Source: Patescibacteria group bacterium
GTDB taxonomy: Bacteria > Patescibacteriota > Patescibacteriia > UBA1558 > GWA2-36-10
Direction of reading: 5' to 3'
Length of the DNA: 64,000 bases
NCBI GenBank assembly: GCA_018062885.1
Contig: JAGORJ010000001.1
Location: 151-64,150, forward strand
Shown here: positions 5,426-19,410 of the stretch, piece by piece
How the letters are laid out: the number at the start of each line of letters is the position of its first letter
Numbering within the stretch: position 1 is the first letter of the stretch
Notes under the pieces: model-generated
What the model was told of the DNA's origin: nothing
Databases searched by the model: none
What the model saw: the letters and a program-made list of their open reading frames with translations, nothing else
Position numbers and translations under genes: made by a program

Positions 5426-6802
5426 ATGGAAAATTGGTTTCATGAGAGTCTGCCACAGTGGTTCTGGGTCGCTTGGCCCTGGATCAAGGCAGCTTCTTTG
5501 CCTTTACTGGCAGCGTTCATGTTCTTGACCATGTTCTGGAAGTTTCCGTTCATCCAGAAGCGCAAGCAGACCATGTTCTGGGGCGTACTTGCTCTGGCAC
5601 TGGTCGCAACCTTGTGTTTACGCTTTTTTGTCTTTCAGCCTGAATCTTCGGGTACTGAAAAGCAAACCGGCGTGACCAATGTCGTCCAGCAAGATCAGCA
5701 AACTCAGATGATTCAGAAACAAGAAGAAAAGGACTCAGACAAGGTAAACTGGTGGCCATTCTTTGCGGTTTTGTTCGGTCTGAGTTTCGGCGGTGTGCTG
5801 ATGTACAGATCTTGGACCGGTAAAATCTGGCAAGATGTGGCGGTCAATAGTACCTATTGGCAGGGGGTTGTTTTCGGTGGGTTTTTTTTGATAGGATCCT
5901 TGATTATGGGTTTCTGGCCCAATCTCTTGCACATCTGGATTCCTCTCCTTGCCCTGTCTATCGCTGGGTCTGCGATGTATTCCGTGCCTATTCGCACTGG
6001 CTGGGTATTCACCGCTTTCAATGACCCTGTGTCCCACAAAGGCACTGGTTTACGCTGGTGGTTTCCATTGCTGTTACCATTCATTGGTATAATTCCTTTG
6101 AAAATAGAGTTTCGTGAACGAAACATCAAAAAAACAAAGGAGTTTTCCACTAGAGTGGACAGTGCGTCGACGCCCGGTCCTGGTCCCAAGAATACCAAGG
6201 GCGCGCAAGTCTCTTATGAGCTGCAATATTGGTATCTGGCGAACAAAAATCCAGAAGCCTATTTGGAGATGTCAGATGAAGATCGTGCGGATCTTGACAA
6301 GGCTATTGAGAGTTCCTTGCAAGGTTTCATGGCAGAGGCTACCCGAGTTTCTACCTTGGACGAGGCCATGGATTATCAAGTGGTCTTTCCTCCTTACGAG
6401 GTCAAGAAGTCAGCTGCGATCTGTGCAAAAGAAAGGAAAGATCCTCTGTATGCGAAGTGGTTTGCGTTGGTTGATTTGATCTTGCACCGTTGTGGTTCTG
6501 AGGTGGTGCACTTGAAGATCATTGATCGCGATGCAGACGCTGAAACCATGGAGCAGATGCGTCAGCTGGCACTGATGGCCTATAAGCTCAGTATGGCGCA
6601 GAAAGAAAAGGAGATCAAAAAAACACAAGGTCAAGCGGAAGGTGATCAGCTTTCTGCTACCATTGAGGCTTTGAAGAAGACTGGTTTGACTGCTGAGCAA
6701 GCTGCTACGCAGGCCTTCCAGCGCCTCACTTTGCCTGAGTTGAAGGGTGCGATCATTTCTTTGGGTGTTGATTCACCCGGCATCATGGTGAACAGGCCCT
6801 AA
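5426..6802 (+). CDS. Hypothetical polytopic membrane protein with Trp-rich N-terminus and about 200-aa soluble C-terminal domain; compositionally foreign (about 52% GC)
   Basis: 458 aa, at least 5 TM segments, Gly/Pro linker STPGPGPKNTKG, then helical domain; GGAG RBS; GC far above neighbours. Confidence 0.6.
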   Translation: MENWFHESLPQWFWVAWPWIKAASLPLLAAFMFLTMFWKFPFIQKRKQTMFWGVLALALVATLCLRFFVFQPESSGTEKQTGVTNVVQQDQQTQMIQKQEEKDSDKVNWWPFFAVLFGLSFGGVLMYRSWTGKIWQDVAVNSTYWQGVVFGGFFLIGSLIMGFWPNLLHIWIPLLALSIAGSAMYSVPIRTGWVFTAFNDPVSHKGTGLRWWFPLLLPFIGIIPLKIEFRERNIKKTKEFSTRVDSASTPGPGPKNTKGAQVSYELQYWYLANKNPEAYLEMSDEDRADLDKAIESSLQGFMAEATRVSTLDEAMDYQVVFPPYEVKKSAAICAKERKDPLYAKWFALVDLILHRCGSEVVHLKIIDRDADAETMEQMRQLALMAYKLSMAQKEKEIKKTQGQAEGDQLSATIEALKKTGLTAEQAATQAFQRLTLPELKGAIISLGVDSPGIMVNRP

Positions 6803-6822: not shown

Positions 6823-6873
6823 CCGCCCACCACAAAATCCAATTGGACTAGTGGTGAGGCGGCTTTTTTCTTT
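6823..6873 (+). terminator. Rho-independent terminator ending the high-GC cassette
   Basis: ccgcccaccac ... gtggtgaggcgg stem (loop contains its own palindrome tccaattgga) followed by CTTTTTTCTTT. Confidence 0.6.
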
Positions 6874-6882
6874 ACGCAAAAG

Positions 6883-7251
6883 TTGATTTATAGTATAATA
6901 AATCCATATTTAAAATCATTAAAAAATAAAATTATGATCAATGACATTATGTTAAATTTTGTCGATGAGCTTTTGCAAGAATCTGGTTTTTCTGGCGATT
7001 TAGGAAAACACACAGAGTATAAAGAAAATATTTTGAGCTTAGTTCAGCAAAGATTGGGTACTGAAATTATGAAGCTGATGAGCGCGGAACAACTTGAAGC
7101 TTATTTGGATTTGGTAGAGTCTAAGCCAAATGCTGAGCAATTGAGTGATTTTTTTCAAAAAAATATTCCTGAACTTGATCAAAAAGTGCAAGCTATTTTA
7201 GTTAGTTTTAAAAAAGATTTTTTGAATATTTTAGCAAGCGCTGGTCAATAA
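6883..7251 (+). CDS. Hypothetical small acidic protein (true start may be internal Met at MINDIMLNF)
   Basis: 122-aa ORF, low-GC native composition, no recognisable domain. Confidence 0.35.
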   Translation: MIYSIINPYLKSLKNKIMINDIMLNFVDELLQESGFSGDLGKHTEYKENILSLVQQRLGTEIMKLMSAEQLEAYLDLVESKPNAEQLSDFFQKNIPELDQKVQAILVSFKKDFLNILASAGQ

Positions 7252-7258
7252 TTTTGAT

Positions 7259-7426
7259 ATGACGAACAATGAAAAAATAGAGAGAATAAAAGAAGTTTAT
7301 CTAGATTTTTTGGCCCAGCTGCAAGAGCTCAAGGCTGATTCTAAACAACAGAATTTAGCGCGTATTCAGGCTATTGAAAAACAAGAGATAGATAAAATTT
7401 TAGATAAAATTCATAAAGATTTTTAA
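7259..7426 (+). CDS. Possible 55-aa helical small protein (below the ORF-track length cut-off)
   Basis: ATG...TAA ORF MTNNEKIERIKEVYLDFLAQLQELKADSKQQNLARIQAIEKQEIDKILDKIHKDF, heptad-like, fills the gap before the giant gene. Confidence 0.25.
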   Translation: MTNNEKIERIKEVYLDFLAQLQELKADSKQQNLARIQAIEKQEIDKILDKIHKDF

Positions 7427-7437
7427 ATTTTAAGTAT

Positions 7438-10400
7438 ATGGCGAATAAAAGAGATAGACGAGAAGGCGGGGAAGATCAAACTCCTGTACCAGAAGCAGAG
7501 GCTTCTTCTGCTCAATTAAGAGAATACGCTGAAACTACTGTAGCTGGTATGCGGCAAGCTCTTGAGGCTTTTAAACGTGCGGTTGAATTAGCGGCTAATA
7601 GCGCTTCTTTGATGGGAAAAGCAGAGAGATTATTTGCAAAAGCAGAACAGAAAATTAATGGTTTGGCTAGCACCATTCAAATAGATAATGTAAAAGATGG
7701 TTTTGTAGCTAACTTAAGTGGTTTAAAGGATAATGTGCTTGAAAATAATGAATCTAATAGAGATGAGTCTATTAATAATCCAGATGTACTTACTCTCAAA
7801 AAGTCTATTAGTGTTAATGAGGTATTAACAGAAGAAGAAAGAAATAATTTTTTAGGAGATATTAAACCAGACATGGATCAAGCTTCTTTAGAAGCGCTTG
7901 GTGCACGATTTTTTGTATTAGCACAAGAAAAATACAAAAATAAAATGCAGTCTTATTATGATAGCTTTATAAGTTCCAGGCCAACACTTAAAGATAGAGT
8001 CGCACAAACATTTATTAAATACAGCAGGGATTTATCAGTACAAACAACAGTTTTTGGTATGAGAAATATTTTTGCTCGTTTTGAAGAAGTGTTGCGAGAT
8101 TACTCTTCTGCTAGTCCATCCTCTCCAGATTCTCAGGAGTCAGGCAATAGCCTTCTGGCTCAAAAATTAACTCCAGACAATATTTTAGCTTCAGTTGAAA
8201 ACAATCAGCCTATTTATGTCAAAGTACATGTAGATGGTGGTGATTTGGAAACCGATTGGTTTGTTGAAAATATAAATATAGATACGCAAAAAGTTTTTGT
8301 TAGTAAAAAAAATGGGGATGATATTTCTAGTAAATGGTTTGATGTTGATGATTTACTCAAGTGGGATTTAGAAGTTGATGAATCTAATCATGGTGATACG
8401 CCTGAATCAGAGCCAAGTTCAGAAGATATCTCAAAAGAGAAAACGGAACTAATTAAAAAAGCGGCTGAGGAATTAGACGCTACCTCTGATTCTTTGAGAG
8501 CTGATGATTATGGTATTAATGCTGAAAAGGCAGCAGATTTAGTTAGTAGTAGTATTGAAAAAATTCAAAATCTTGACCATAATTTGACTATCAACGAATT
8601 AAATCAAGCCATTACAGAAATTAATAGTAGTTTAGATGTAAACTTGGAAGCATTAAAAGTTTCGTTAATAGACCCCAAAGAAGTTCCATCTGGCGCAGCA
8701 GAAGAGCCAGTAGAGACACCAGCCCCAGAAGATCCTGTCTTATCTACTGAACAAACTCCAGAGGTGCAACAAGAAAAATTAAAACTTGTTGATATCAAGC
8801 CAGAAAAAATTAAGGAGATTTTAGAAAGCGCTAATGTTGTTGCTCAGCTAAAAGATTTATTACTTCAAAAAGAAGGTGCTGGTTCAGCAGGCTTACAAGA
8901 AAGTATTGTTGAAGTTTTACAAAATTATTTTACCGAACAAAATTTAAATTTAAACTCAGAAGCACAGGAAAATTTGAAGGCAATGATTGAAAATCTAGCC
9001 GCAGAAACCTCTGAGCAAGTCACTCAAGCTTTTGCTAGCTCTTTGGAACAGCAGGCTAAAATTGATTCGGGTTGGTTTGATAAAGTCAAACAACATATGT
9101 CTGCTTTGATGGGTGCTAGATTAGCTACCACCTTTGCCATTGGTATTGGCGCAACTGCTTTAGCGCCAGTTATAGCTCCTATGTTAGGCATGGCAGCTGT
9201 TGGTTGGGGTACGGTTGGCCTTGCTGGTGGTATAGCGGGTTTAGGTAGATATTTTGGTAATAAAATTTTTACTAAATTTCAGAAGTCTGAAAAAAATATT
9301 AATAAATTAAAATCAAAAGAAGAAGAAAAAATAGAGCAAAGAAAAGCGGTTTTACTAGAAGAAAACTTTATAAATGTTGATTCTTTGGCAGCTGTAATGG
9401 CTAACACCTTAAGAACAAGCACTTCAGAAGATTTTCGTACTGGTCAAATCTTAGATAGTGAAGGTAATTTTTCTGAAGAAGTTGCTGAAACTTTGAAAGC
9501 AAATATTCAAAATTTACTGGATAATGATCCGCGTTATGTTGGTTTAAGTCCAGAGGAAAAAATACTAAAAGCAAAACAACTCTTTACTATTTTGTCCATG
9601 GAGCTTATTCAGCAAAGTAGAAATATTTTTGATTTAGATAAAGACAAAGAAGATCCTGCTATGATCAAAGCTATGCAAAAGTTGCAAAGTGTGTTGTCTG
9701 GAAAAATTGAAGGAATAGACAAACTAAATGTTGATAATGATTTTGCACAAGCAGGCGCAGCTGCTTTGGTGGGTGCTGGTTTAAGAGTTGCTTATACTCA
9801 CAGTGCACTTGCAGCTTCAGCAACTTCAGCTTTGTCTGGTGCTTTGATGGGCTGGTCTTTAGCTTCGGCTGAAGCAAAGCATTCTATGCAAGAACAATAT
9901 TATAAGGATGTTGAGGAAATCTTAGATTTAGGCGAGAGTATGCTTAGTGATGTCGTTTCTAATAAAAATTTTGAAAATAAAAATGGAGAGTGGAAGCAAA
10001 AAAAATACATAGATTTAGAAAATAAGGTTATTCCTGTAAAATCAATGCTATCTTTAAAGCTTGGTGATAATTATATTCTCACAGACCCGGTACTTCGAGC
10101 TAGGGCAGAAAATTTTATTCATCAATTTGGTCAATATAAAACTCTTGAGATGAAGATTGAGGGTACCCGTATTTATGATCTTGATCAAAATCAACTCTTA
10201 AAAAATTTACAGAAGAATATAAATTCAAAAAATGACCATTCTGTAGAAGAAATAGCTAGAAACCAAAAATGGGATCAGCGTTTTACTAACTTGTTTAGGT
10301 ATTCTGCTACACTCACTGGCGCAGCTATTGGTGGAATTATTGGTTTTGCCTCTGGAGGGTCAATGGAGTCAGCTGAAAATAACACAGGGTCTTCTGCTCA

Positions 10401-12327
10401 AGAAACAAATACTGCGGACTCTTTAAGTGTAGCTTCACAAGATTCTACAAAAGTTTCGGCAGATAGCTTGAAGCAGTTTACGGAAAATCCAGCAGATTCC
10501 ACAGCAACAGAAGCATCTGATGTTGTAAATAATGCAAATGTAACAGAAAATTCTGGTTCTGCTTCAGTGTCGGGAAATTCTCCGGATCAAGCTGCTACAA
10601 CTGTGATTGGTACACATGAAGTTATTACCACAAAGACCGGCACTTTAGAAAATGTTATTCGTACAGAAGATGGTATGCAAGGCAATGATTCTATCTGGCG
10701 TTCTACCAAAGATATAATCAAAAGTGACCCAGAAAAATTCGGCTACACCGGTGATCATGATGATCTTGGAGCTATCTCAAAATTTGCAGAAGCCAAAACT
10801 GCTAGTTTAGTGAATCAGCTTGAGCAAGCACAAGGTGGTGATTTAGCTGATTTGGTACATAATGGTGATAAGGTGATTGTAAGTTTTGAGGATGGTAAGC
10901 CCGTTTTAAGCTTTGAAGATAGTTCTGGTATAAAAGCTGGTCATTTGCCTGATTTTACAGCCAAGACAGAAATACCAAGTCCAGAAACGATAATGCCTGA
11001 AACACCTTTGGTTCCAGAAGCTCCAGTATTACCAGTGGTGAATGCAGACGAGTTCTTTGGTGGTAAAATTGCTTATTCTGCTGATTTATTTAAAGAAGTG
11101 GCTGATAAGCCAGAAATTTTGAATCAAGTGGCAGAAAAAGTTTTTGAAAATGGCTCGCCAGAAGTACAGAAACAATTTTTACATGATTTGTATCCAGATT
11201 CTTTTATGGATAATACAAATAAAGCATCAGTATTTTTGCACTATGTGGAAAATGCACCAGATATTAGTGTGAAAGATTTAGACAGCGTCAAAGATTTAGA
11301 TACCTGGGTAAATAATTTTGATGCACAAGCTAATAGTGATGATTTACCAGGCAAAAATTGGGAAGTTAGATTATTGACTGATGATAAAGGTAAGACATTT
11401 TATGCTATGGTGCATGAAAGTAAAAATCGTCTTTTTGCTCAAGATGAATTTGAAGTCAATAATCTCAGTGGTGAAATTTTCAAACTAAAAGAAAAGGTTT
11501 TAGAAAACTGGCTTCAAAATTCAGAAAACAATTTAGTGCCAGCAGCAGAAGAATTACCACCTACAACGACCGCACCTGAAACTCCAGTTGCTCCAATTGA
11601 GCCGATTATTGAAGCTCCAGATACCAATGCTAATGAAGCACAAGGATTATCTAGTGAAGATTCAGCTACATCAGAAAATATACCAAGTTCAGGTAGGGTG
11701 GATGATATCCGGTTAGAGGGTGGCCAAACTCTAAATTTTAATTATGATGAGTCTGGTAAGGTGACTGGGATTGGTCTGGGGGGTGAAATTTCTGGTGAGC
11801 CTGAAGTATTAAGAGGTGATTTTCGTGCTATTTTGAGAATGAAGCTTGGTAATCTTAGGCCAGGTGACATCAGTGTGGTGTCGCAAGTTGCTCGAAAAGT
11901 TGATTTACAAATGGATTTTTTGAATAATTTAGTAGAAAATGGTAAAGCTGATACTCCAGAAGCAGAGTTCTTGGCTGATAGAATCTTGAAAGATGTTGCT
12001 GAAGTCGAAAAGAAATATGGCGATGTGTTTAAAGACATTAAAACGGAGGCTGATGGTAAATTAAGTTTTGTGGAGACTGTTCCAGAAGCTGCGCCCACAG
12101 CGCCAATCGAGACTCCAGTTGAAGCTCCAATAGAAACAGAAATATCGACTGGTGGTGGCGCTAATTTTAAGATTTTATCTCAAATGCAGGAAAACGCTAA
12201 ATTCTATGACACACAGGATAATGTATTTACCAAAATAGACGGTAAAATATTTAGAGCCGATCCTTTTGGTGAAATGACTATTGAGGTGAGGGGTCAAAAA
12301 GATTTAGATAATTTATATCAAAAATAA
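7438..12327 (+). CDS. Giant (1629 aa) acidic low-complexity protein with internal glycine-zipper TM hairpins and PExP-rich linkers
   Basis: No signal peptide; about 12% Asp+Glu; hydrophobic Gly/Ala-rich segments (ATTFAIGIGATALAPVIAPMLGMAAVGWGTVGLAGGIAGLG; AGAAALVGAGL...SGALMGWSLA; LTGAAIGGIIGFASGG); repeated P-E-x-P/APIE motifs. Confidence 0.7.
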   Translation: MANKRDRREGGEDQTPVPEAEASSAQLREYAETTVAGMRQALEAFKRAVELAANSASLMGKAERLFAKAEQKINGLASTIQIDNVKDGFVANLSGLKDNVLENNESNRDESINNPDVLTLKKSISVNEVLTEEERNNFLGDIKPDMDQASLEALGARFFVLAQEKYKNKMQSYYDSFISSRPTLKDRVAQTFIKYSRDLSVQTTVFGMRNIFARFEEVLRDYSSASPSSPDSQESGNSLLAQKLTPDNILASVENNQPIYVKVHVDGGDLETDWFVENINIDTQKVFVSKKNGDDISSKWFDVDDLLKWDLEVDESNHGDTPESEPSSEDISKEKTELIKKAAEELDATSDSLRADDYGINAEKAADLVSSSIEKIQNLDHNLTINELNQAITEINSSLDVNLEALKVSLIDPKEVPSGAAEEPVETPAPEDPVLSTEQTPEVQQEKLKLVDIKPEKIKEILESANVVAQLKDLLLQKEGAGSAGLQESIVEVLQNYFTEQNLNLNSEAQENLKAMIENLAAETSEQVTQAFASSLEQQAKIDSGWFDKVKQHMSALMGARLATTFAIGIGATALAPVIAPMLGMAAVGWGTVGLAGGIAGLGRYFGNKIFTKFQKSEKNINKLKSKEEEKIEQRKAVLLEENFINVDSLAAVMANTLRTSTSEDFRTGQILDSEGNFSEEVAETLKANIQNLLDNDPRYVGLSPEEKILKAKQLFTILSMELIQQSRNIFDLDKDKEDPAMIKAMQKLQSVLSGKIEGIDKLNVDNDFAQAGAAALVGAGLRVAYTHSALAASATSALSGALMGWSLASAEAKHSMQEQYYKDVEEILDLGESMLSDVVSNKNFENKNGEWKQKKYIDLENKVIPVKSMLSLKLGDNYILTDPVLRARAENFIHQFGQYKTLEMKIEGTRIYDLDQNQLLKNLQKNINSKNDHSVEEIARNQKWDQRFTNLFRYSATLTGAAIGGIIGFASGGSMESAENNTGSSAQETNTADSLSVASQDSTKVSADSLKQFTENPADSTATEASDVVNNANVTENSGSASVSGNSPDQAATTVIGTHEVITTKTGTLENVIRTEDGMQGNDSIWRSTKDIIKSDPEKFGYTGDHDDLGAISKFAEAKTASLVNQLEQAQGGDLADLVHNGDKVIVSFEDGKPVLSFEDSSGIKAGHLPDFTAKTEIPSPETIMPETPLVPEAPVLPVVNADEFFGGKIAYSADLFKEVADKPEILNQVAEKVFENGSPEVQKQFLHDLYPDSFMDNTNKASVFLHYVENAPDISVKDLDSVKDLDTWVNNFDAQANSDDLPGKNWEVRLLTDDKGKTFYAMVHESKNRLFAQDEFEVNNLSGEIFKLKEKVLENWLQNSENNLVPAAEELPPTTTAPETPVAPIEPIIEAPDTNANEAQGLSSEDSATSENIPSSGRVDDIRLEGGQTLNFNYDESGKVTGIGLGGEISGEPEVLRGDFRAILRMKLGNLRPGDISVVSQVARKVDLQMDFLNNLVENGKADTPEAEFLADRILKDVAEVEKKYGDVFKDIKTEADGKLSFVETVPEAAPTAPIETPVEAPIETEISTGGGANFKILSQMQENAKFYDTQDNVFTKIDGKIFRADPFGEMTIEVRGQKDLDNLYQK

Positions 12328-12355
12328 CCATTCGACTTCGCTCAGGATGACATGA

Positions 12356-12382
12356 AAATACCTGCTATTATGCGGGTATTTT
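12356..12382 (+). terminator. Terminator for the giant gene
   Basis: atacctgc-tatta-gcgggtat hairpin followed by TTTGATT. Confidence 0.45.
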
Positions 12383-12406
12383 GATTAAAGATAAATAAAA
12401 AAAGAA

Positions 12407-12436
12407 CCCGCCAAATCACTGCTGTGACTTGGCGGG
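12407..12436 (-). terminator. GC-rich terminator for minus-strand gene 12462-13394
   Basis: cccgccaa...ttggcggg stem; on the minus strand it is followed by TTTTTTTATTT. Confidence 0.55.
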
Positions 12437-12461
12437 CTTGCGCAATGCGCGACGGAAGGTT

Positions 12462-13394
12462 CTAGTGTCGGTGTGGGCGGGGCATGGCGCCGCGTTTGGA
12501 TTTCTCCTTTGCGGGCTGCTGCTCCGTTGTTGGTAAGGCGCTGAGTGAGATTTGCTCCGTGACGGGTTTTGGTACCGTCAAGGTTTGGATGAAGTCAAAG
12601 TACTGCACTACGCCGTGCTTGACTTTCATCTGCTCCCAGCGTTTGCCGCGAGTGGTGCTCAGTTGCTCATCGACGGCAGCGAGCCCGGTGTTTAGCAAGG
12701 TATTCATTGTGTCTTGCATACACCAGAGTTCGCTGTTTCTTGTTTCAGAGTTTATGAACTCACCGCGCCCGACGAATCCGTTCATGTCGATTGGCGTAGG
12801 CGTCCAGTCCTTGTTCTCCAAGACCTGGAGTCTCCCATCAAGCTCCTTGTCCTTCTCTTCCAGGGCCAGCAAGCGCTGGGCGTTGGGGGAGTTGGCCATG
12901 ATCTGGGCGATCATCGGCCGACTGTCTTGCTTGCTGTTGACGACTCGTTCAATCGCTCGACTCAATGAATCTACTTGGGCAGGAGTGTAGCCATTGACTG
13001 CAGTGTAGCCAGCAGATCCAAGAGCTGCATACATCGCACGACGTCCCATCCATTGGATATGGTTGGATTGCTGTGCGGCAGCGGTAGTAAACTTCGGGTA
13101 CCAGCATACCCGGTTGTCCTCGATCTTGCAGTCGCCCTTGTAATAGACTGTGTCCCCATTGGACACCTCAAATGTCAGGCGGTACTGCTTGATCGGCTGG
13201 CCCTTATTGTTCCATTTCACCAGCCATGGGGCCATCTCGGGCTTGGTTGGGGCCCAGCTGGCCATGGTGGCGGAGCTGTCGGGGTTGGTTTTGGTCAGGT
13301 TGCTGTCGTCGGCGTCTGCCTGGCTGATGTTGCTCGTGATGAGCGTCATGATGGCGATGAGAGCCATCCAAATGTACGAAGTGTGATTCTTCAT
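12462..13394 (-). CDS. Secreted protein of unknown function, high-GC (about 55%); probable start at second Met (MKNHTSYIW)
   Basis: ORF track gives 12462-13415; GGAAGGAAG RBS precedes the Met at 13394; signal peptide IWMALIAIMTLITSNISQADA; coiled-coil LLALEEKDKELDGRLQVLE. Confidence 0.6.
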   Translation of the reverse strand: MKNHTSYIWMALIAIMTLITSNISQADADDSNLTKTNPDSSATMASWAPTKPEMAPWLVKWNNKGQPIKQYRLTFEVSNGDTVYYKGDCKIEDNRVCWYPKFTTAAAQQSNHIQWMGRRAMYAALGSAGYTAVNGYTPAQVDSLSRAIERVVNSKQDSRPMIAQIMANSPNAQRLLALEEKDKELDGRLQVLENKDWTPTPIDMNGFVGRGEFINSETRNSELWCMQDTMNTLLNTGLAAVDEQLSTTRGKRWEQMKVKHGVVQYFDFIQTLTVPKPVTEQISLSALPTTEQQPAKEKSKRGAMPRPHRH

Positions 13395-13483
13395 GGGTCT
13401 TCCTTCCGTTCTCATATTTTTGGGCTAAAAGCCCGTTTGTGTAGGTGCGATTCGGCTAGAAACAGATTCTAGCTTGACTAAGT

Positions 13484-13512
13484 ATTATATACTATTTTAA
13501 AACATTTGTCAA
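13484..13512 (-). promoter_or_regulatory. Perfect-consensus TTGACA-N17-TATAAT promoter on minus strand driving 12462-13394
   Basis: rc of 13507-13512 is TTGACA, rc of 13484-13489 is TATAAT, 17-nt spacer. Confidence 0.5.
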
Positions 13513-13562
13513 GGATTTTTGGAACCGTCTAGTTTTGTTAGGCTTTTTGTAAAAATATAAGA

Positions 13563-13591
13563 TTGACAGATTTTGATTTTTAGTGTATGAT
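13563..13591 (+). promoter_or_regulatory. Near-consensus TTGACA-N17-TATGAT promoter driving 13682-14680
   Basis: TTGACA 13563-13568, 17-nt spacer, TATGAT 13586-13591; divergent from the preceding promoter. Confidence 0.5.
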
Positions 13592-13681
13592 AATAAATCA
13601 AACAATTTTGCCTTACAAGGCATTTGTTTGCTCGATCTTCGACAAAATCATCACACAAAAAGCATATCAATGGGGGAAAGC

Positions 13682-14680
13682 ATGAAAAACGCGATGTTGG
13701 GACTCATTTTTGGCCTTTTGGCCATGCTCCAGTTCGCTTCGGCAGCTGAAAAGGTGGGAACGTCTTTTCTTAATCGTTCTGATCTTGAGGTTTGGGGCAC
13801 CAGTCAGTTGGTTACCACTTTCGAGGGAGACAGTCTGGCGAGAAACAAATGGTCCTATGCTATTTTTGGTGCCGAGCTCTGGATCAACGGCCGTCAGTCC
13901 TTGGATGTCTTCTCGATCAAGGCTGAAGGACAGCTGGCCTATGGCATCAAGGCCGAGAATCTGCTGACAGAGGCTTTTGCTCAGCAAGATTGGCGTCAGG
14001 CTTCAGGTCTGGGTGCCAGTTTTCGAGCTGGACAGTACCAGCATTTGAGCAGGGCAAACTTCGCTCTTCCGCATGAAGCTGCTCTGCCTCGTCGGATGGA
14101 CGTGGAAGTGCCCTTTACCGAGAATCTCTCGGGCGGAGCATTTTCCGCCTACTGGGATCAACAGGATACGCTCAAGATTCCTGCTGGTTTCAAAATGAGC
14201 TGGGGCTTTGGTAAGTCCAGGCCGATGCCACAGCAGAGCTGGGACACGCTATTAGTAGCGTTTCCGGAACCGCGGTGGAGCTGGGGAGCTGCATACCACA
14301 TCACAGGGTATTTTGGGGCCACAGAGCTCCATCTGGGCTGGGAAAAGGAAGTGGGGCACAATGCTTCGCTTTATATTGCCCCCCATGTAAATGTGGACTT
14401 GGGCTTGAGCTGGACCTACAGTTTTCACCCACACTCCGAAATTGCGCCGGACAATCTCTACGCAGCCAAGCTCAGCTGGAGATTCTGGCAGTCGCAAACC
14501 GAGAAGCACAGCTTCTCGGTGGTCAGTGGCCTGGATTTCGGAGACCAAACCGAAGCCTTGCAAGCCTTGTTGGGCTATCAGTGGAAGCTGCCCATCGAAG
14601 GTTTCGTGAAGCTTCAGGCGGGTTATGATGGTCGCTATGAGCAGCCGGTGGTTGCTCTGCGTTACTATCTGAGACTGTGA
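13682..14680 (+). CDS. Secreted beta-strand-rich protein, outer-membrane beta-barrel-like, high-GC (about 57%); start at internal Met (MKNAMLGLIF)
   Basis: ORF track 13583-14680; GGGGGAAAG RBS before the ATG at 13682; signal peptide LAMLQFASAAEK; alternating hydrophobic/polar strands through the C-terminus (LSWRFW, SFSVVSGLDFG, LLGYQWKL, VVALRYYLRL). Confidence 0.55.
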   Translation: MKNAMLGLIFGLLAMLQFASAAEKVGTSFLNRSDLEVWGTSQLVTTFEGDSLARNKWSYAIFGAELWINGRQSLDVFSIKAEGQLAYGIKAENLLTEAFAQQDWRQASGLGASFRAGQYQHLSRANFALPHEAALPRRMDVEVPFTENLSGGAFSAYWDQQDTLKIPAGFKMSWGFGKSRPMPQQSWDTLLVAFPEPRWSWGAAYHITGYFGATELHLGWEKEVGHNASLYIAPHVNVDLGLSWTYSFHPHSEIAPDNLYAAKLSWRFWQSQTEKHSFSVVSGLDFGDQTEALQALLGYQWKLPIEGFVKLQAGYDGRYEQPVVALRYYLRL

Positions 14681-14700
14681 ATGTGTGATTCGATGAATTC

Positions 14701-14740
14701 AGCGGCGGGAACCTTTGGGATCCCGCCGCTTTCTTTTTTG
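14701..14740 (+). terminator. Strong GC-rich rho-independent terminator closing the high-GC island
   Basis: agcggcggga / tcccgccgct perfect 10-bp stem followed by TTCTTTTTTG. Confidence 0.65.
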
Positions 14741-14836
14741 TCCAAAATTGCTTAAAATATAGGTGTAAAGGGATGGGCTTTAAAAATCTTGACATTTATT
14801 TAAAAATGTGTTATTTTAATATGATATCTAAACAAT

Positions 14837-16369
14837 ATGTTTGATAATTTAGAACAAAAAAATATTCCTGAAAAAGCCAAAACTGGCCCTGAAAAATGGC
14901 AAGATTTTTGGCTTCCAAGCGAAAACAACGATTATCACCCACATTCACTGCAATTTAGACGCATGTTCTTTTATGCAAGTACTGCTGTATTGATGAAAGT
15001 GATTGTGGCTCTTTTTGTGGTTGCCCTGCCTATTACGGCTTGGTTGACACCGGATATTTTGACCCAAGAAAGTAAAAAGATAGTCTCCTTGACCAATGAT
15101 TTAAGACAAAGTCTCAATGTGCCCGTTTTGACAGAAAATCAGACTTTAAACCTTGCTGCCTATGGCAAGGCTGAAGATATGTTGTTACAACAATACTTTG
15201 CCCATATTGGTCCAGATGGCAAGAGAGTGTCTAGTTGGCTAAAGGATTTGGGATATGACTATTATATGGCTGGGGAAAACTTGGCTATGGGCTTTGCTTC
15301 AGCTGAAGAAGTGGTTGAGGCTTGGAAAAATAGTCCTACTCATTATGCTAACTTAGTTGACCCAAGTTTTACGGAAATTGGTGTCAGTATGCTCAGTGGA
15401 GAATATAATGGCATGGACACAAGCTTGGTAGCCCAGATGTTTGCTTATCCAAAAATCGTGGTGGTAGCTGATGAGATTGTAGTGCCAGCTCCAGAAAATC
15501 AAGTACCAACACCAGAAGTAGTGGAAACTCCAAAGCCAGTAGAAACTAAGATTATCCAAGCTACTAAAGTTCCTGTAACTCCAAAACCTGTTGTTGTTCA
15601 GACTCAAAATTCAGCTCCAGTTGTAGAAGTAGTAGAAAATCAACCGGCAAATGATTTGAAAAATGCCAACCTTGTTAGTGAAGAAAATATTGTTATTTCA
15701 GCCGGCATTGAAACGCCTGAGGAAACAGTAGTAGATTTATTAGAACCAAAAGAGGATTTAGTTTTAGAAAACGTAGAAGCTAATAATACAAGAGAGGAGA
15801 TTGTGACGCTTTCTGAGACTAATGAACTTGTGACAGATGTGACGCCACCTGAAGTGGATTTATTAAAAACAAAAATTATCATTGATCAGCCGGATAACAA
15901 GGCGGAGGCAATCATCAAGATAGATGCTTACCTAAGTCTTGATACACAAGAAGTTTTTGTTTCTTGGGCAGGAGAAAAAATTAGTCTGGCAAATGTTGGT
16001 GATGGTCATTGGGTGGCTTATGCTACTTTGACAGCTGAACAAGCCGACAAAATTTTGAATCCAATTATTTTGCCAAATATTACGGCGATTGATGCGTTTG
16101 CTAATAAAAGTGTAGTGGATTTAGGTCTTGAACAAATCAAGCCAGTTAAAACTTCTTTGCTTAATCAGTATTTTTTCCTCAAAAAAATCAATGCAGATGG
16201 AGCAGGAACTTTGTTTAATATTTCAATCATTTATTATAAAATTTTTGCTTTACTGTTGAGTATTGCTTTGGCTCTGAATATTTTTGTTCATATCAAAAAG
16301 CAAAATTATAGAGTAATTGGTTCAGCGGCAATGTTTTTGATTTTATTAGCCCTGTTAATCATTTTTTAA
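14837..16369 (+). CDS. CAP/SCP (PR-1-like, YkwD-type) domain protein with N- and C-terminal TM anchors and Pro/Val-rich linker
   Basis: CAP core NLAAYGKAEDMLLQQYFAH...GENLAMGF...AWKNSPTHYANLVDPSFTEIGV; PTPEVVETPKPVETK linker; C-terminal hydrophobic helix. Confidence 0.75.
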   Translation: MFDNLEQKNIPEKAKTGPEKWQDFWLPSENNDYHPHSLQFRRMFFYASTAVLMKVIVALFVVALPITAWLTPDILTQESKKIVSLTNDLRQSLNVPVLTENQTLNLAAYGKAEDMLLQQYFAHIGPDGKRVSSWLKDLGYDYYMAGENLAMGFASAEEVVEAWKNSPTHYANLVDPSFTEIGVSMLSGEYNGMDTSLVAQMFAYPKIVVVADEIVVPAPENQVPTPEVVETPKPVETKIIQATKVPVTPKPVVVQTQNSAPVVEVVENQPANDLKNANLVSEENIVISAGIETPEETVVDLLEPKEDLVLENVEANNTREEIVTLSETNELVTDVTPPEVDLLKTKIIIDQPDNKAEAIIKIDAYLSLDTQEVFVSWAGEKISLANVGDGHWVAYATLTAEQADKILNPIILPNITAIDAFANKSVVDLGLEQIKPVKTSLLNQYFFLKKINADGAGTLFNISIIYYKIFALLLSIALALNIFVHIKKQNYRVIGSAAMFLILLALLIIF

Positions 16370-16402
16370 AAACAGTTTTTTAATTTTTATTATATTAAAT
16401 AT

Positions 16403-19354
16403 ATGAAGAAAATAATCAGTGTTATTACTATCAGTAGTTTAATTTTCAGCGCCAGCATGAGCTATACTTTGCCAGCTTTGGCTATGGGTGTAGAAGTTGC
16501 AGAAAAAGGCGTTGATCTTATCTCTGATCAAATTAAAGAAAATATTAAGGATGGCCCTAGTGTGCCTGGCATCTCAGATTCTAGTGGCGCTAGCTCGTCT
16601 TCTAGTAAAAATAAGGCTAATGCGCGCAATCAAAGGCCTGTATTAGAAAGCATTGCTTTCAAAATGTCACCAGAACAAATGTCCGATGATCCAAGTGATT
16701 GGCAAACTTTGTATGGTAACTTAAGTAGAGGATTTTTTATTAATATTCCTACCAGTAGTTTTCATTATGGCTATCAGTTTATAAAAATCTCTGACAGTAG
16801 TGTAAATACTGGCATTGCCTCTGGCAGTCATCCTTTTACTTTGATTTCTGCTCCAGCTGCTTTTGATACTTATTATCAAGCCTCAGATCCGATGCATGCA
16901 ATCGCCAATGGTGAAGCGCCGATATTTTATATGCGCTCCCATGATGATAATTCATTGAGCTTGCTCAATGGTTTGAACAGTCAAAGACATTGGAGAATAG
17001 GTAGTACTTGGCCAGCTGGTGAGTACAGAGTTTCTGGTCGTTTGATGGGTGAAAATGGTTTAGACAGTGAGCCTATCATTATGTCATTTTTCATTTCTCA
17101 CAATGATGACAATGGTGATCATAATTATGTGCCTGAAACAGTTGTGGATAACTATACAGTAGCATCTGGCGCTTTACTAAATGTTAATGTAGCTAATGGC
17201 ATTTTATCTAATGATATTGATTTAGACGGTCCAGATGAATTAATAGCCTTAAGAACTAGTATTGTTGATGGTTTGGAGACTGAAGATTTATTGCACGGTA
17301 GATTTAATCTACGCGCCGACGGTAGTTTTGCTTACCAGTCAGTAGATGGTTTTGCTGGTACTGCGGTATTTTATTATCGAGCTTTTGATGGGCAAGATTC
17401 TTCTCGAACAACCATTGTGACTATCAATGTCACAGCTACAGACTCCAATCAAGAACCGATAGCAGTAGAAGATTCTTATACAGTACGATCTGGTTCTTTG
17501 TTAAATCTTACTGAAGATAATGGTGTTTTATCAAATGACATTGATTTAGATGGTCCAAATGATTTAACAGCTAAAAGAACTAGTATAGTTATTGGCATTG
17601 ATCCTATCCCAGATTTATTGCACGGTAAATTCACTTTCCGTTCAGATGGTAGCTTTGCTTACACATCAGTAGATGGTTTTGTCGGTGTAGCTAAATTTTG
17701 GTACAAAGCTTTTGATGGTGAAGATTATTCTCGAGCAACTTTAGTGACTATCAATGTCACAGCCTCAGACGCAAATCAAGCGCCATTGGCCGTCACAGAT
17801 TCTTATTCAGTACGATCTGGTTCTTTGTTAAATCTTACTGAAGATAATGGTGTTTTATCAAATGACATTGATTTAGATGGTCCAAATGATTTAACAGCTA
17901 AAAGAACTAGCATAGTTATTGGCATTGATCCTATCCCAGATTTATTGCACGGTAAATTCACTTTCCGTTCAGATGGTAGCTTTGCTTACACATCAGTAGA
18001 TGGTTTTGTCGGTGTAGCTAAATTTTGGTACAAAGCTTTTGATGGTGAAGATTATTCTCGAGCAACTTTAGTGACTATCAATGTCACAGCCTCAAGCTCA
18101 AATCAAGCGCCGGTAGCTGTAGCTGATACTTATGAAACTGTAAATAACAGTGACTTAAATGTTTCAGTTGCTAGTGGAGTTTTAGTAAATGATACAGACA
18201 ACGAGCATCAAGCTTTAAGAGCGGTTTTAAATACCACGGTGTCTAACGGTGTCTTGACTTTAAATTCAGATGGCTCGTTTAATTATAATGCCACTGATGG
18301 TTTTGTTGGTAATGATGTCTTTACTTATCGTGCTTTTGATGGCGCTTTGTACTCAGAGATTGTTAATGTGAGCATCAATGTCACAGCTCCATCAAGTGGT
18401 GGTGGCGGCGGAGGAGGCGGCGGCGGATCTACACGTAATCCTCGTAATGCCAATATTGTCATCAACAATAACGCCGTTTCTACCAATACTGTTTCGGTCA
18501 ATTTGACTTTATCAGCTGACAATATGATCGCTACTTATGCACCTTTAGAAATGCGTATTAGTAATTTTTCCAACTTTAATAACGCTTCTTGGCGTCCTTA
18601 TGCCACAACTACTTCTTGGACTTTATTGAGTGGTAATGGCAACAAAACTGTGTATGCTCAGTTCAAAAATAAAAGAGGTGTAAGCAGCAATGTTTCTGAC
18701 AGTATTCAGCTTATCGCTGGTCAAGTTTTGGGCGACAGAGATTGTAGTGGAGTTGGCGGTAGTTTGTTCTCTTTGTTAAATCGTAAAGATGCAACTGTTT
18801 ATTATATCAGCTCAGATTGTAAAAAACACGCTTTCCCTGATCCAAAAACTTATTACACTTGGTATAATGATTTTAGCAAGGTTGTTAAAGTGACACCTAG
18901 TGAATTAGATTTATATTTAGAAGGTAATGTTATCTCTTATCGTCCAGGTATCAAGCTGGTGAAAACAGTGGATACAAATAGAGTTTATGCCGTTGAGCCT
19001 GATGGCGTTTTGCGTCATATCACTTCTCCAGCTATGGCTAGAGCTTTATATGGTGATAATTGGCAAAATTTAGTACAAGATGTTATCACTGGTTATTTTG
19101 CTACTACCTATACTAAAGGATCTTCTTTGAATGATTTATTACCTACAGGTACTTTAGCTAAAGAGCCTGATAATGATACTATCTACTATGTCCAAAATGG
19201 TCAGAAGCGTCCTTTCTCTAGCTTGGCTGCCTTTAATGCCAACTATTTCCGTATGAAAGATGTGATAATTAAAAATAGTTTAGCAAATTATGGCGTGGGT
19301 TCTACTATTAATCGTTTTGATGCTTCATTGTTGCCTTACCCATTGATTAACTAA
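16403..19354 (+). CDS. Secreted 983-aa surface adhesin-like protein with 5 tandem about 100-aa Ig-like/cadherin-like ('tandem-95' type) repeats, poly-Gly linker and C-terminal repeated module
   Basis: Signal peptide; repeats of V-x-D-x-Y-x-V...GVLSNDIDLDGP...GSFAY-x-SVDGF-x-G...AFDG...INVTA; GGGGGGGGGG at aa 666-675. Confidence 0.75.
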   Translation: MKKIISVITISSLIFSASMSYTLPALAMGVEVAEKGVDLISDQIKENIKDGPSVPGISDSSGASSSSSKNKANARNQRPVLESIAFKMSPEQMSDDPSDWQTLYGNLSRGFFINIPTSSFHYGYQFIKISDSSVNTGIASGSHPFTLISAPAAFDTYYQASDPMHAIANGEAPIFYMRSHDDNSLSLLNGLNSQRHWRIGSTWPAGEYRVSGRLMGENGLDSEPIIMSFFISHNDDNGDHNYVPETVVDNYTVASGALLNVNVANGILSNDIDLDGPDELIALRTSIVDGLETEDLLHGRFNLRADGSFAYQSVDGFAGTAVFYYRAFDGQDSSRTTIVTINVTATDSNQEPIAVEDSYTVRSGSLLNLTEDNGVLSNDIDLDGPNDLTAKRTSIVIGIDPIPDLLHGKFTFRSDGSFAYTSVDGFVGVAKFWYKAFDGEDYSRATLVTINVTASDANQAPLAVTDSYSVRSGSLLNLTEDNGVLSNDIDLDGPNDLTAKRTSIVIGIDPIPDLLHGKFTFRSDGSFAYTSVDGFVGVAKFWYKAFDGEDYSRATLVTINVTASSSNQAPVAVADTYETVNNSDLNVSVASGVLVNDTDNEHQALRAVLNTTVSNGVLTLNSDGSFNYNATDGFVGNDVFTYRAFDGALYSEIVNVSINVTAPSSGGGGGGGGGGSTRNPRNANIVINNNAVSTNTVSVNLTLSADNMIATYAPLEMRISNFSNFNNASWRPYATTTSWTLLSGNGNKTVYAQFKNKRGVSSNVSDSIQLIAGQVLGDRDCSGVGGSLFSLLNRKDATVYYISSDCKKHAFPDPKTYYTWYNDFSKVVKVTPSELDLYLEGNVISYRPGIKLVKTVDTNRVYAVEPDGVLRHITSPAMARALYGDNWQNLVQDVITGYFATTYTKGSSLNDLLPTGTLAKEPDNDTIYYVQNGQKRPFSSLAAFNANYFRMKDVIIKNSLANYGVGSTINRFDASLLPYPLIN
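17471..18094 (+). repeat. Near-identical tandem direct DNA repeat, period 327 bp, two copies, inside the adhesin gene
   Basis: 17471-17767 and 17798-18094 differ at only a few positions and encode identical 99-aa Ig-like modules. Confidence 0.8.
18398..18427 (+). repeat. (GGN)10 simple-sequence tract encoding Gly10
   Basis: ggtggtggcggcggaggaggcggcggcgga in frame with the adhesin. Confidence 0.8.
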
Positions 19355-19369
19355 AAATTATAATGCAAA

Positions 19370-19410
19370 TAAAAAAACTTCCAAGCTATTTAGTTTGGAA
19401 GTTTTTTATT
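19370..19410. terminator. Bidirectional terminator between adhesin (+) and dus (-)
   Basis: acttccaa / ttggaagt 8-bp stem flanked by A-run and T-run. Confidence 0.6.

Follow-up and report, generated by a model that had tools for sequence, protein, structure and literature searches.

A conserved three-gene module of candidate phyla radiation bacteria built around a giant protein with a predicted Gly/Ala-rich membrane core

Genes of the module

A 64,000-nucleotide stretch of the genome of a Patescibacteria group bacterium (contig JAGORJ010000001.1, positions 151 to 64,150; hereafter the window) encodes an acidic protein of 1629 amino acids (aa) directly behind two small genes. The three genes form a module that can be found, mostly in the same order, in related genomes of the candidate phyla radiation (CPR), and the giant protein is tentatively proposed here to be an envelope-spanning surface tether. 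The genes of the module are the following.

6934..7251, + strand: DUF5663 gene, module gene 1; 105 aa from the ATG at 6934 (the mechanical open reading frame begins with a TTG at 6883)
7259..7426, + strand: gene of a 55-aa helical protein, module gene 2; 7 nucleotides after the DUF5663 gene and 11 nucleotides before the giant gene
7438..12327, + strand: giant protein gene (1629 aa); ATG start, 1629 codons without a stop

The giant open reading frame (ORF) is one real gene, uninterrupted. At the base composition of the window, an ORF of this length would arise by chance with a probability of ~1e-50, and its start is supported because residues 6-105 of the protein align with residues 3-101, i.e., the N-terminus, of a relative of 1800 aa (P0001). 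That several genes have been joined through a sequencing or assembly error could be suspected from one relative, L002, in which the giant gene is broken into two overlapping ORFs (7347-9428 and 9374-11659), reflecting a frameshift, a pseudogene or a sequencing error. Against such an artefact, independent assemblies contain undivided ORFs of 1040-2005 aa in which the modules follow one another in the same order, conservation runs unbroken over all module boundaries in P0001 and P0002, no conserved region has a ratio of nonsynonymous to synonymous substitution rates (dN/dS) of 1 or more, and the folds of the C-terminal domains are modeled with a predicted local distance difference test score (pLDDT) above 90. 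The fusion reading is effectively refuted already and retains next to no probability.

The N-terminus of the giant protein (MANKRDRREGGEDQ...) is charged and no hydrophobic h-region was seen in it on inspection of the sequence; therefore, the protein has no signal peptide. Neither an LPXTG motif nor a hydrophobic tail is present at the C-terminus (...QKDLDNLYQK), and no internal repeats were found in the protein. Asp and Glu make up 16.7% of the residues and Lys and Arg 10.1%, resulting in a net charge of -108 and an isoelectric point (pI) of 4.57. Cysteine is absent, the average in the 28 other ORFs of the window being 0.44% (expected number ~7; P ~7e-4). The original prediction, made from the letters of the window, of a single 4.9-kb ORF lacking a signal peptide is borne out by the reading frame and the charged N-terminus, as is that of a very Asp/Glu-rich product by the composition. 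The frameshifts or gene fusions that it named as a possible refutation were not seen, as judged from the single-gene layout of the relatives, the dN/dS values and the folding of the domains, and its description as a giant protein without a known function in a CPR genome holds for this one gene.

The giant protein family

An exhaustive HMMER search retrieved 121 cluster representatives related to aa 440-1629 of the giant protein, most of them 900-2400 aa long and 54 of them at E<=1e-10. As judged by coverage along the query, the core of the protein (~aa 441-1000) is matched by 25 representatives. The closest relative is P0001 (68% identical), which was also the sole relative found by a word-index search; the near-orphan status suggested by that search is an artefact of its index, which lacks most members, including P0002 and the 100%-identical fragment P0005. 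The word-index search with a 75-sequence profile of the C-terminal domain D1 likewise gave no relative, and a scan of genome contigs with the single giant protein gave no match. Loci were located by a scan with patterns from a 15-sequence alignment, using one genome per species, the 75-sequence alignment being too diverse for patterns.

Regarding known families, the giant protein has no match in Pfam, NCBIfam or PADLOC, and nothing was found in Pfam at E<=1e-3 for 31 full-length family members. The glycine-zipper families of Pfam (Gly-zipper_Omp/OmpA/YMGG; VacA-type) do not match the giant protein even at E<=1, and no ClyA-type toxin family matches it among Pfam or PDB sequences. PHROGs return two families of unknown function only (E 6e-5 and 7e-4), while sequence and profile searches of the PDB give marginal matches only. 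Weak Pfam matches to ArdA, HpaB, DUF726 and apolipoprotein were rejected, all being far under the cut-off. Among the module proteins, only the 55-aa protein has a match to the anti-phage defense profiles of PADLOC, of 14 bits (E 0.005), so that none can be assigned to a known defense system. Homology to a characterized cytoplasmic protein family, which had been put forward as a possible refutation, was not found in these searches, and a literature search on DUF5663, giant CPR proteins and transposon sequencing (Tn-seq) in Patescibacteria found no description of the giant family. The giant protein is not a lone oddity but belongs to a conserved, syntenic family with two small partner genes, a point that the original prediction had missed.

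Conservation of the three genes

The product of module gene 1 reaches 24.2 bits with Pfam PF18908 (cut-off 23.7), and the same family is matched by eight of nine positional homologues (best E 8e-11), which align from a MINDI/MEDxI start. PF18908 (DUF5663) is a family without known function, and no paper mentioning DUF5663 was found in the literature search. The 55-aa gene is kept at the same position in related loci (alignment A8; hidden Markov model (HMM) matches); its product is 98% identical to the copy in the L001 locus with a dN/dS of 0.04, and its counterparts in distant loci have 57-69 aa. In NCBI, the small upstream genes of the window are entered as hypothetical proteins (KBC40_00055 and KBC40_00060).

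With HMMs made from positional homologues, the DUF5663 gene and the small gene can be found directly upstream of the giant gene in 11 loci (the window, L001-L003, L005, L007, L008, L010, L011, L013, and L014). Three further loci are truncated on their 5' side, and in L009 the giant gene is preceded by the small gene and a different small acidic protein. The latter occupies the DUF5663 position in both L009 (6913-7239) and L016 (7636-8124) and carries the motif ...LPE[ML]SL[ED]Q[VI][ED]EL...; it may be a very diverged or an analogous partner.

The association can also be approached from the DUF5663 side. Independently, 74 DUF5663 proteins were found, all of ~105-137 aa, and seven of their genomic contexts were looked up, one of them belonging to Candidatus Magasanikbacteria. 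A giant of 1186-1904 aa adjoins DUF5663 in all seven; in six, the DUF5663 gene is followed by a gene of 55-69 aa and then by a Pfam-less giant of 1396-1904 aa. The order is inverted in L023 (2151-6060), where a 1186-aa giant (core HMM E 3e-166) lies directly upstream of DUF5663 and no small gene was detected. The core HMM matches the giants of five of the seven (L017, L018, L019, L022, and L023; E 1e-12 to 1e-183), and those of L017-L019, which have 0-1 cysteines, again show three hydrophobic runs, the first being Gly/Ala-rich and ~40 residues long and the other two measuring ~18 and ~20 residues. Five looked-up loci lie in other neighborhoods, either with SmpB, IF3, L20 and a Wzz-like gene (L017, L018, L020, and L021) or with a UvrD-like helicase and GyrB (L019). 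Since the linkage of DUF5663 with the giant is maintained in unrelated neighborhoods, the module is conserved and moves as a unit. As far as could be found, a linkage of DUF5663 to a giant membrane protein is undescribed.

Some additional genes can be observed around these distant copies. The Wzz-like gene (polysaccharide chain-length determinant) is located at 7690-8295 in L017, 7738-8343 in L018, 7368-7979 in L020, and 6699-7310 in L021; in Magasanikbacteria-type loci, it precedes DUF5663 together with two unknown genes. In L017 and L018, a gene of the bAvd/23S-rRNA-IVP family can be found ~4 kb upstream.

Architecture of the giant protein

The regions and domains of the giant protein, in order along the gene, are listed below.

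7438..8757, + strand: N-terminal region, aa 1-440; acidic, variable, modular, no hydrophobic segment; predicted cytoplasmic
8758..10437, + strand: conserved core, aa 441-1000; all-helical, holding three hydrophobic segments (alignment A3)
9100..9246, + strand: hydrophobic segment 1, aa 555-603; two-helix hairpin of 48 residues, rich in Gly/Ala and turning at Pro577 and Pro581
9745..9870, + strand: hydrophobic segment 2, aa 770-811; Ala/Ser/Gly-rich, the weakest of the three, with a conserved Arg and GxxxG (G801, G805)
10084..10125, + strand: most conserved core motif, DPVLRARAENFIHQF, aa 883-896; family consensus DPLLKSRAENFIH
10300..10365, + strand: hydrophobic segment 3, aa 955-976; single Gly-zipper span, predicted in-to-out crossing
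10366..10611, + strand: Ser/Thr/Asn-rich linker by composition, aa 977-1058; dN/dS 0.9; cysteine-free across the family
10612..10941, + strand: domain D1, aa 1059-1168; motifs DSIWRST, FGYTGD, DLVHNGDKV, and SSGIKAGHL; the most widespread module
11017..11532, + strand: domain D2, aa 1194-1365; helical subdomain, then a four-stranded sheet; pLDDT >90
11692..12084, + strand: domain D3, aa 1419-1549; beta-hairpin, three long helices, beta-hairpin; motifs GxADTPEAEFL and EKKYGDVFKD; pLDDT >90
12157..12324, + strand: domain D4, aa 1574-1629; small beta domain and C-terminal helix; pLDDT >90

The alignment of the core (A3) comprises 22 sequences. A helical lead-in is followed by a Gly/Ala-rich hairpin of 35-48 residues, a strongly basic stretch and the motifs LSxHISNxLRxETS, DPxYxDLxPE, and KPxxxxxIEKYN. 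Then come a second Gly/Ala/Ser segment with a conserved Arg and GxxxG, a helical stretch ending with DPLLKSRAENFIH, another basic stretch and the single Gly-zipper span. Within DPLLKSRAENFIH, the R-A-E triplet is invariant (R460, A461, and E462 of alignment A3). The core HMM matches 37 family sequences as well as giants beside distant DUF5663 genes, and D1 always comes after the core in the 37 sequences matching both. The AlphaFold2 model of the core is all-helical with a mean pLDDT of 57.9, the soluble helices reaching 70-85 and the hydrophobic parts remaining below 50; searched against the PDB with Foldseek, this low-confidence model gave noise only (best E 0.6).

Three Gly/Ala-rich hydrophobic stretches had been pointed out in the original prediction, and they can be placed at aa 555-603, 770-811, and 955-976. 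Gly, Ala and Ser account for 49-62% of their residues as compared with 23% of the whole giant protein. They are the only segments with a low insertion energy, calculated as a simple Hessa-type sum over 19 residues (+2.4, +3.2, +4.0, and +4.7 kcal/mol, which is marginal), so that the description of them as unlike classical transmembrane helices also stands: they are Gly/Ala-rich and too weakly hydrophobic. Segment 1 has basic flanks on both sides (KVKQH...R before and RYFGNKIFTKFQKSEKNINKLKSK after), and runs of 35-40 residues equivalent to it are present in distant family members. With a family median of +5.5 kcal/mol, segment 2 is unlikely to be a stand-alone transmembrane helix. Segment 3 is preceded by a basic stretch (RNQKWDQRFTNLFR) and followed by an acidic one (ESAENN). 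As for the GxxxG spacing attributed to these stretches, two pairs, G801/G805 and G961/G965, recur in 90% or more of the 22 family members; however, GxxxG and small-xxx-small pairs within the giant protein are not more frequent than in composition-preserving shuffles (P 0.07-0.68).

C-terminal to the core, four domains are separated by linkers. The C-terminal model (AlphaFold2, alignment A5 of 54 rows with fragment placement checked) has a mean pLDDT of 81, with the four domains above 90 and the linkers at aa 1169-1189, 1367-1416, and 1550-1572 below 50. Linkers of the Pro/Glu type, correctly recognized in the original prediction, occupy aa 421-431, 1374-1392, and 1546-1567. D1 (pLDDT >90), with the secondary structure order beta-beta-alpha-alpha-alpha-beta-beta, is matched by ~84 of the 121 representatives (alignments A1 and A2) and has no Pfam or PDB match. 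D2 is common to about 15-25 representatives, D3 is matched by 27 and D4 by 7-13. A weak Tudor/SH3-like Foldseek match of D4 to 6hq9 has a probability of 0.2 and a target TM-score of 0.55, obtained with a four-domain query of lower sensitivity. No cell-wall-binding profile (LysM, SH3b, or SPOR) was found in the giant protein or 30 relatives. Core and D1-D4 make up at least five domains without a Pfam or solved-structure counterpart.

Two further observations concern D1. By eye, it could be taken for a LysM variant (DSIW..., LGY..., DLVH.GD.V), which was rejected since it has no Pfam LysM match and a different predicted secondary structure order. The D1 profile also gives a marginal match (E 0.019) to PDB 2gqb_A, a 130-aa "conserved hypothetical protein," through an ELGYxGDxND...W motif at aa ~1095-1125 (window ~10720-10812); fold searches did not confirm it.

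The N-terminal region is the least conserved part. Its first 110 residues are aligned by only 3 of the 121 relatives, P0001 has ~195 additional residues after residue ~90, and aa 246-330 correspond to unrelated sequence in P0001, with a dN/dS near 1. A YolD-like Pfam match at aa 248-306 (E 0.004) was rejected, being far under the cut-off in a stretch that is not conserved in the closest relative. These residues (window 8179-8355) form a small beta-rich stretch, and the giants of L020 and L021 begin with a domain that is similar by eye.

Predicted topology

No hydrophobic stretch precedes aa 555 in the giant protein, and an uncharged Gly-rich run can be found at a median of 110 aa before D1 in 74 of 103 D1-bearing proteins. 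For this segment-3-type run, the 15-residue flanks carry, on average across the family, a net charge of +2.8 on the N-terminal side and -0.3 on the C-terminal side. Cysteine is avoided in the proteins that single-membrane bacteria export. In the family, it makes up 0.19% of the N-terminal region and 0.057% of the core, is absent from the linker and amounts to 0.018% (3 of 16,289 residues) between the start of D1 and the C-terminus, against a background of 0.44% in the 28 other ORFs of the window. Taken together, the flank charges, the order core then D1 and the cysteine gradient favor an orientation with the N-terminus inside and the C-terminus outside (N-in/C-out). Both this topology and the surface exposure of the C-terminal part are predicted from hydropathy, charge and cysteine counts.

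Evolution of the giant gene

Between the window and L001, the flanking genes (DUF5663, 55-aa and 365-aa proteins) show 92-98% aa identity, with a synonymous divergence (dS) of 0.13-0.20 and dN/dS of 0.04-0.29. The whole giant gene is more diverged (72% identity, dS 0.52, dN/dS 0.35), and unevenly so. In aa 1-440, identity is 25-56% (dS 0.65-1.3, dN/dS 0.29-1.07); aa 441-1058 retain 79-91% (dS 0.15-0.36, dN/dS 0.2-0.3, except for 0.9 in the linker 977-1058); D1-D3 show 66-85% with a dS of 0.7-1.1 and, for D1, a dN/dS of 0.09; and the tail, aa 1550-1629, returns to 79-96% (dS 0.1-0.37, dN/dS 0.18-0.37). Over the conserved parts of the gene, dN/dS is 0.09-0.4. Since dS is high in the N-terminal region and D1-D3 and low in the flanks and the core, divergent alleles have been recombined into a conserved frame, and the giant gene is a recombination mosaic relative to its closest relative. 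Different combinations of the C-terminal modules can be found among the relatives, such as D1-D2-D3-D4, D1-D2-other-D4, D1-other-D3 or a duplicated D3.

Genomic neighborhood

The pattern scan retrieved 15 loci, all from CPR metagenome-assembled genomes labeled Parcubacteria, Patescibacteria or Saccharibacteria, bar four. These four (L004, L005, L008, and L010) are third-party assemblies labeled "uncultured Gammaproteobacteria," yet they have the Parcubacteria gene order and Dus and CorA proteins 62-72% identical; the labels are probably wrong. In at least 10 loci, the order is Fpg, an SdpI-like protein, a polytopic membrane protein, DUF5663, the ~55-aa gene, the giant, a variable slot, Dus and CorA (both on the opposite strand), FtsB/DivIC, PpiC, a double-psi beta-barrel (DPBB) protein, FtsE and FtsX. 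The following features flank the module in the window.

5426..6802, + strand: upstream polytopic membrane protein, 458 aa, with a soluble C-terminal half; a sub-threshold DUF4131 (ComEC N-terminal type) is its sole Pfam match
6871-6899: promoter-like site between the 458-aa membrane protein gene and the DUF5663 gene
12405..12438, called on the minus strand: GC-rich 15-bp stem-loop, followed by a T-run, between the convergent giant and 317-aa genes

A polytopic membrane protein of 440-610 aa is present at the same position in eight related loci, the mutual similarity being weak, and the 458-aa protein could be a fourth component of the module, as a candidate only. The stem-loop may also terminate the giant transcript.

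Directly downstream of the giant gene, the GC content rises to 0.48 from ~0.36, followed by genes of a CAP protein and a Big_9/cadherin protein. In 7 of 14 loci, Dus is the immediate neighbor of the giant gene, and in five the two are 0.9-1.7 kb apart; 6-7 kb of extra genes between the two can be found in the window and L003 only. Since the insert is missing or short in most relatives, this "foreign island" was rejected as a partner of the giant, and the island and the CAP/cadherin genes are to be considered occupants of a slot. The original prediction was right that they follow the giant gene directly; the link that it saw in this is incidental. The slot (12328-19405 in the window and 6870-13000 in L003, with CAP and Big_9/cadherin proteins inside) has the appearance of a hot spot for genes of secreted and surface proteins. 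In L022 (503-5170), CAP and Ig-like surface genes are located upstream of Fpg instead.

Within the slot of the window, a divergent GC-rich pair of genes (12462-13415 on the minus strand and 13583-14680 on the plus strand; GC 0.48 versus ~0.36) encodes two products with signal peptides, each gene being preceded by consensus or near-consensus sigma-70 boxes (12/12 and 11/12 matches). Neither product has a match in any family library searched. Compared with L001, the 365-aa protein is 96% identical and the 317-aa protein only 54% (dS 0.86). The 365-aa protein is beta-rich, ends with ...VVALRYYLRL and recalls an outer-membrane barrel; the Patescibacteria lineage is thought to be single-membrane.

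Proposed role and alternative explanations

It can be hypothesized, with a probability of about 0.45, that the giant protein spans the envelope as a surface tether, has partners in the cytoplasm and is the large subunit of a three-gene CPR module. The architecture is the firmer part of this proposal and the binding function the softer one. The cytoplasmic part would comprise the first ~550 residues, which are variable and acidic, together with the helical parts of the core. Two Gly/Ala-rich hairpins of marginal hydrophobicity would hold the core in the membrane, and the conserved Gly-zipper span at aa 955-976 would cross it once more. Outside the cell, the Ser/Thr-rich linker would be followed by D1-D4 on disordered Pro/Glu linkers. 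The membrane-proximal D1, under strong purifying selection, may bind an unchanging target, for instance a partner or the wall of the cell itself, and the distal modules, shuffled and exchanged by recombination, may bind variable external ligands, e.g., a host-cell surface. The core and the two small cytoplasmic proteins, as adaptors or chaperones, would anchor the contact and possibly couple it to the inside, and GxxxG contacts may permit the core to oligomerize. The original prediction had considered a role in surface interaction, which is plausible in view of a 570-residue C-terminal part with four domains on disordered linkers that is nearly cysteine-free and shuffled.

Several points weigh against the tether. 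The segments are only marginally hydrophobic (family medians +2.7, +5.5, and +3.2 kcal/mol), so that spanning is not assured, and the core model is of low confidence, with a pLDDT of 57.9 overall and under 50 in the hydrophobic parts. By a strict criterion, 29 of the 103 D1-bearing proteins have no clean uncharged run, and the core, predicted to be mostly cytoplasmic, is cysteine-poor too (0.057%). The most variable part is the N-terminal region, which the model places inside the cell. D1-D4 have no match to a known binding fold, which makes ligand binding pure inference, and joint transcription of the three genes is read from their spacing alone. A more ambitious version, in which the triad would be a CPR-specific envelope-spanning machine whose Gly-zipper core oligomer serves as a membrane conduit or signal-transmitting assembly joining the cytoplasm, by way of the variable N-terminal region and the two small proteins, to the surface of a partner cell, reached by the shuffled outer domains, is doubtful.

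Among the alternatives, a housekeeping envelope organizer would have the same topology, with its outer domains binding the cell's own wall or S-layer in wall growth, shape or division. The giant gene is single-copy and positionally conserved in many Parcubacteria, in a stretch of the chromosome shared with FtsB/DivIC, PpiC, an RlpA-like DPBB protein and FtsE/FtsX, D1 is under strong purifying selection (dN/dS 0.09), and a Wzz-like gene adjoins the module in Magasanikbacteria-type loci, all of which would suit such a role. However, two opposite-strand genes (Dus and CorA) separate the giant from the division genes and the module occurs in quite different neighborhoods too. Moreover, module shuffling and recombination mosaics are not expected of a purely housekeeping protein, and D1 and D4 match no known wall-binding domain (LysM, SPOR, or SH3b), so that this role is a minority possibility, albeit one to be kept in mind. 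The same topology is abandoned if the protein is a cytoplasmic or peripheral scaffold, with segments that are amphipathic or dip into the inner leaflet and D1-D4 inside. While the marginal hydrophobicity, the lack of a signal peptide and the cytoplasmic look of the partners agree with this, the steep cysteine gradient (down to the 3 residues in 16,289 from D1 to the C-terminus), the charge asymmetry over segment 3 that holds across the family, and the Pro/Glu and Ser/Thr linkers and shuffled modules typical of exposed proteins make it distinctly improbable.

A pore-forming nature (VacA-like or holin-like) had been suggested for the segments in the original prediction, and was not supported: no Pfam match exists, Foldseek yields noise on the low-confidence core model, and positive-inside flanks together with a conserved last segment followed by a conserved D1 point to a resident anchor. 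In its developed form, this explanation describes a conditionally inserting pore former or translocator that is soluble, with its hairpins buried and the small proteins as chaperones, leaves by an unknown export route and inserts into a target membrane. The marginal Gly/Ala-rich segments do resemble the buried hairpins of colicin, ClyA-type toxins and type III translocators, a signal peptide is lacking, the genes just upstream encode small helical proteins, and the whole protein is cysteine-free. The ClyA-family toxins SmhA/B, AhlB, MakA, and PaxB even appear among the noise-level Foldseek matches of the core, but at E >=5 and a probability of at most 0.04, and with a model of pLDDT 57.9. In addition, no Pfam pore-former family was found in the giant protein or 30 relatives, secretion-system genes lie near none of 23 loci, the fixed order of last segment, linker and D1 fits a resident anchor, and the extreme C-terminus ranks with the least diverged parts (dS 0.1-0.37), which sets the protein apart from polymorphic toxins. 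A pore former is consequently improbable, if slightly less so than a scaffold. Finally, phage tape-measure proteins are likewise long and helical and often have Gly-rich hydrophobic segments, and aa 554-666 weakly match phrog_14713, a family of unknown function (E 6e-5). The reading as such a protein or as a prophage remnant is effectively refuted already and keeps hardly any probability: no tape-measure or other phage family is matched in Pfam or PHROGs, a tblastn search against 50,697 phage records and a search of IMG/VR viral contigs with the D1 profile returned nothing, and the neighbors are housekeeping genes in an order conserved in many genomes.

Significance

To our knowledge, how Parcubacteria-group bacteria, the bulk of the CPR, contact and exploit other cells is not known; we are aware of CPR genetics from Saccharibacteria only, and of no other recognized host-contact system in Parcubacteria-group bacteria. 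The module is retained across divergent lineages and chromosomal contexts. In the giant protein, a conserved core predicted to lie in the membrane is combined with a nearly universal outer domain close to the membrane and with outer modules that are shuffled and recombined, as would be expected of a surface contact protein, and it is a concrete candidate for proteomic or cryo-tomographic work on sites of contact between cells. For the orphan Pfam family DUF5663, a constant genomic partner is provided for the first time, and four of the five new domains are modeled with high confidence, ready for expression, binding assays and structure determination. Should the triad be an envelope-spanning machine, it would be a key instrument of episymbiotic life in Parcubacteria-group bacteria; should the giant instead be a housekeeping envelope component, it would still be a lineage-specific core gene of minimal-genome organisms. 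The module is a conserved, structurally uncharted CPR unit, the function of which we infer.

Comparison with known systems

Several known systems share parts of this architecture. ClyA-family toxins and glycine-zipper pore formers such as VacA resemble the giant protein in the predicted all-helical body, the marginal Gly/Ala-rich hairpins and the conserved GxxxG pairs. Unlike these, the giant protein has no profile match and noise-level fold matches only, shows the charge pattern of a resident membrane protein and bears a large multidomain tail predicted to be extracellular. Type III translocators with their chaperones and LXG toxins with their Lap proteins also consist of a large helical hairpin protein with a variable distal part, encoded after one or two small helical proteins. 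However, no sequence similarity relates the giant protein to them and no type III or VII secretion genes can be found in any locus. In contrast to LXG toxins, its extreme C-terminus is not hypervariable and no immunity-like gene follows. Regarding polymorphic toxins in general (LXG, Rhs, and CdiA), no Pfam match was found, and the gene after the giant is convergent and encodes a secreted protein.

Acidic landmark proteins of the FimV/HubP type are also very large and cross the membrane once; one conserved extracytoplasmic domain lies next to the membrane, and the acidic cytoplasmic region is variable. Their orientation is opposite, the LysM domain being N-terminal and outside and the acidic part C-terminal and inside, and the giant protein has no LysM or FimV match. 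The modular surface proteins of single-membrane bacteria, i.e., adhesins with Pro-rich linkers, are alike in having domains on disordered linkers, domain shuffling, cysteine avoidance and mosaic genes. In contrast to them, the giant protein lacks a signal peptide, an LPXTG or other C-terminal anchor and any match to adhesin domains; its predicted anchor is a conserved 560-residue helical core with three Gly-rich segments that comes after a variable, presumably cytoplasmic N-terminal region of ~440 residues, and it has two dedicated small partners. By analogy, the giant protein would work most like a modular surface protein of a single-membrane bacterium, held by an unusual N-in anchor.

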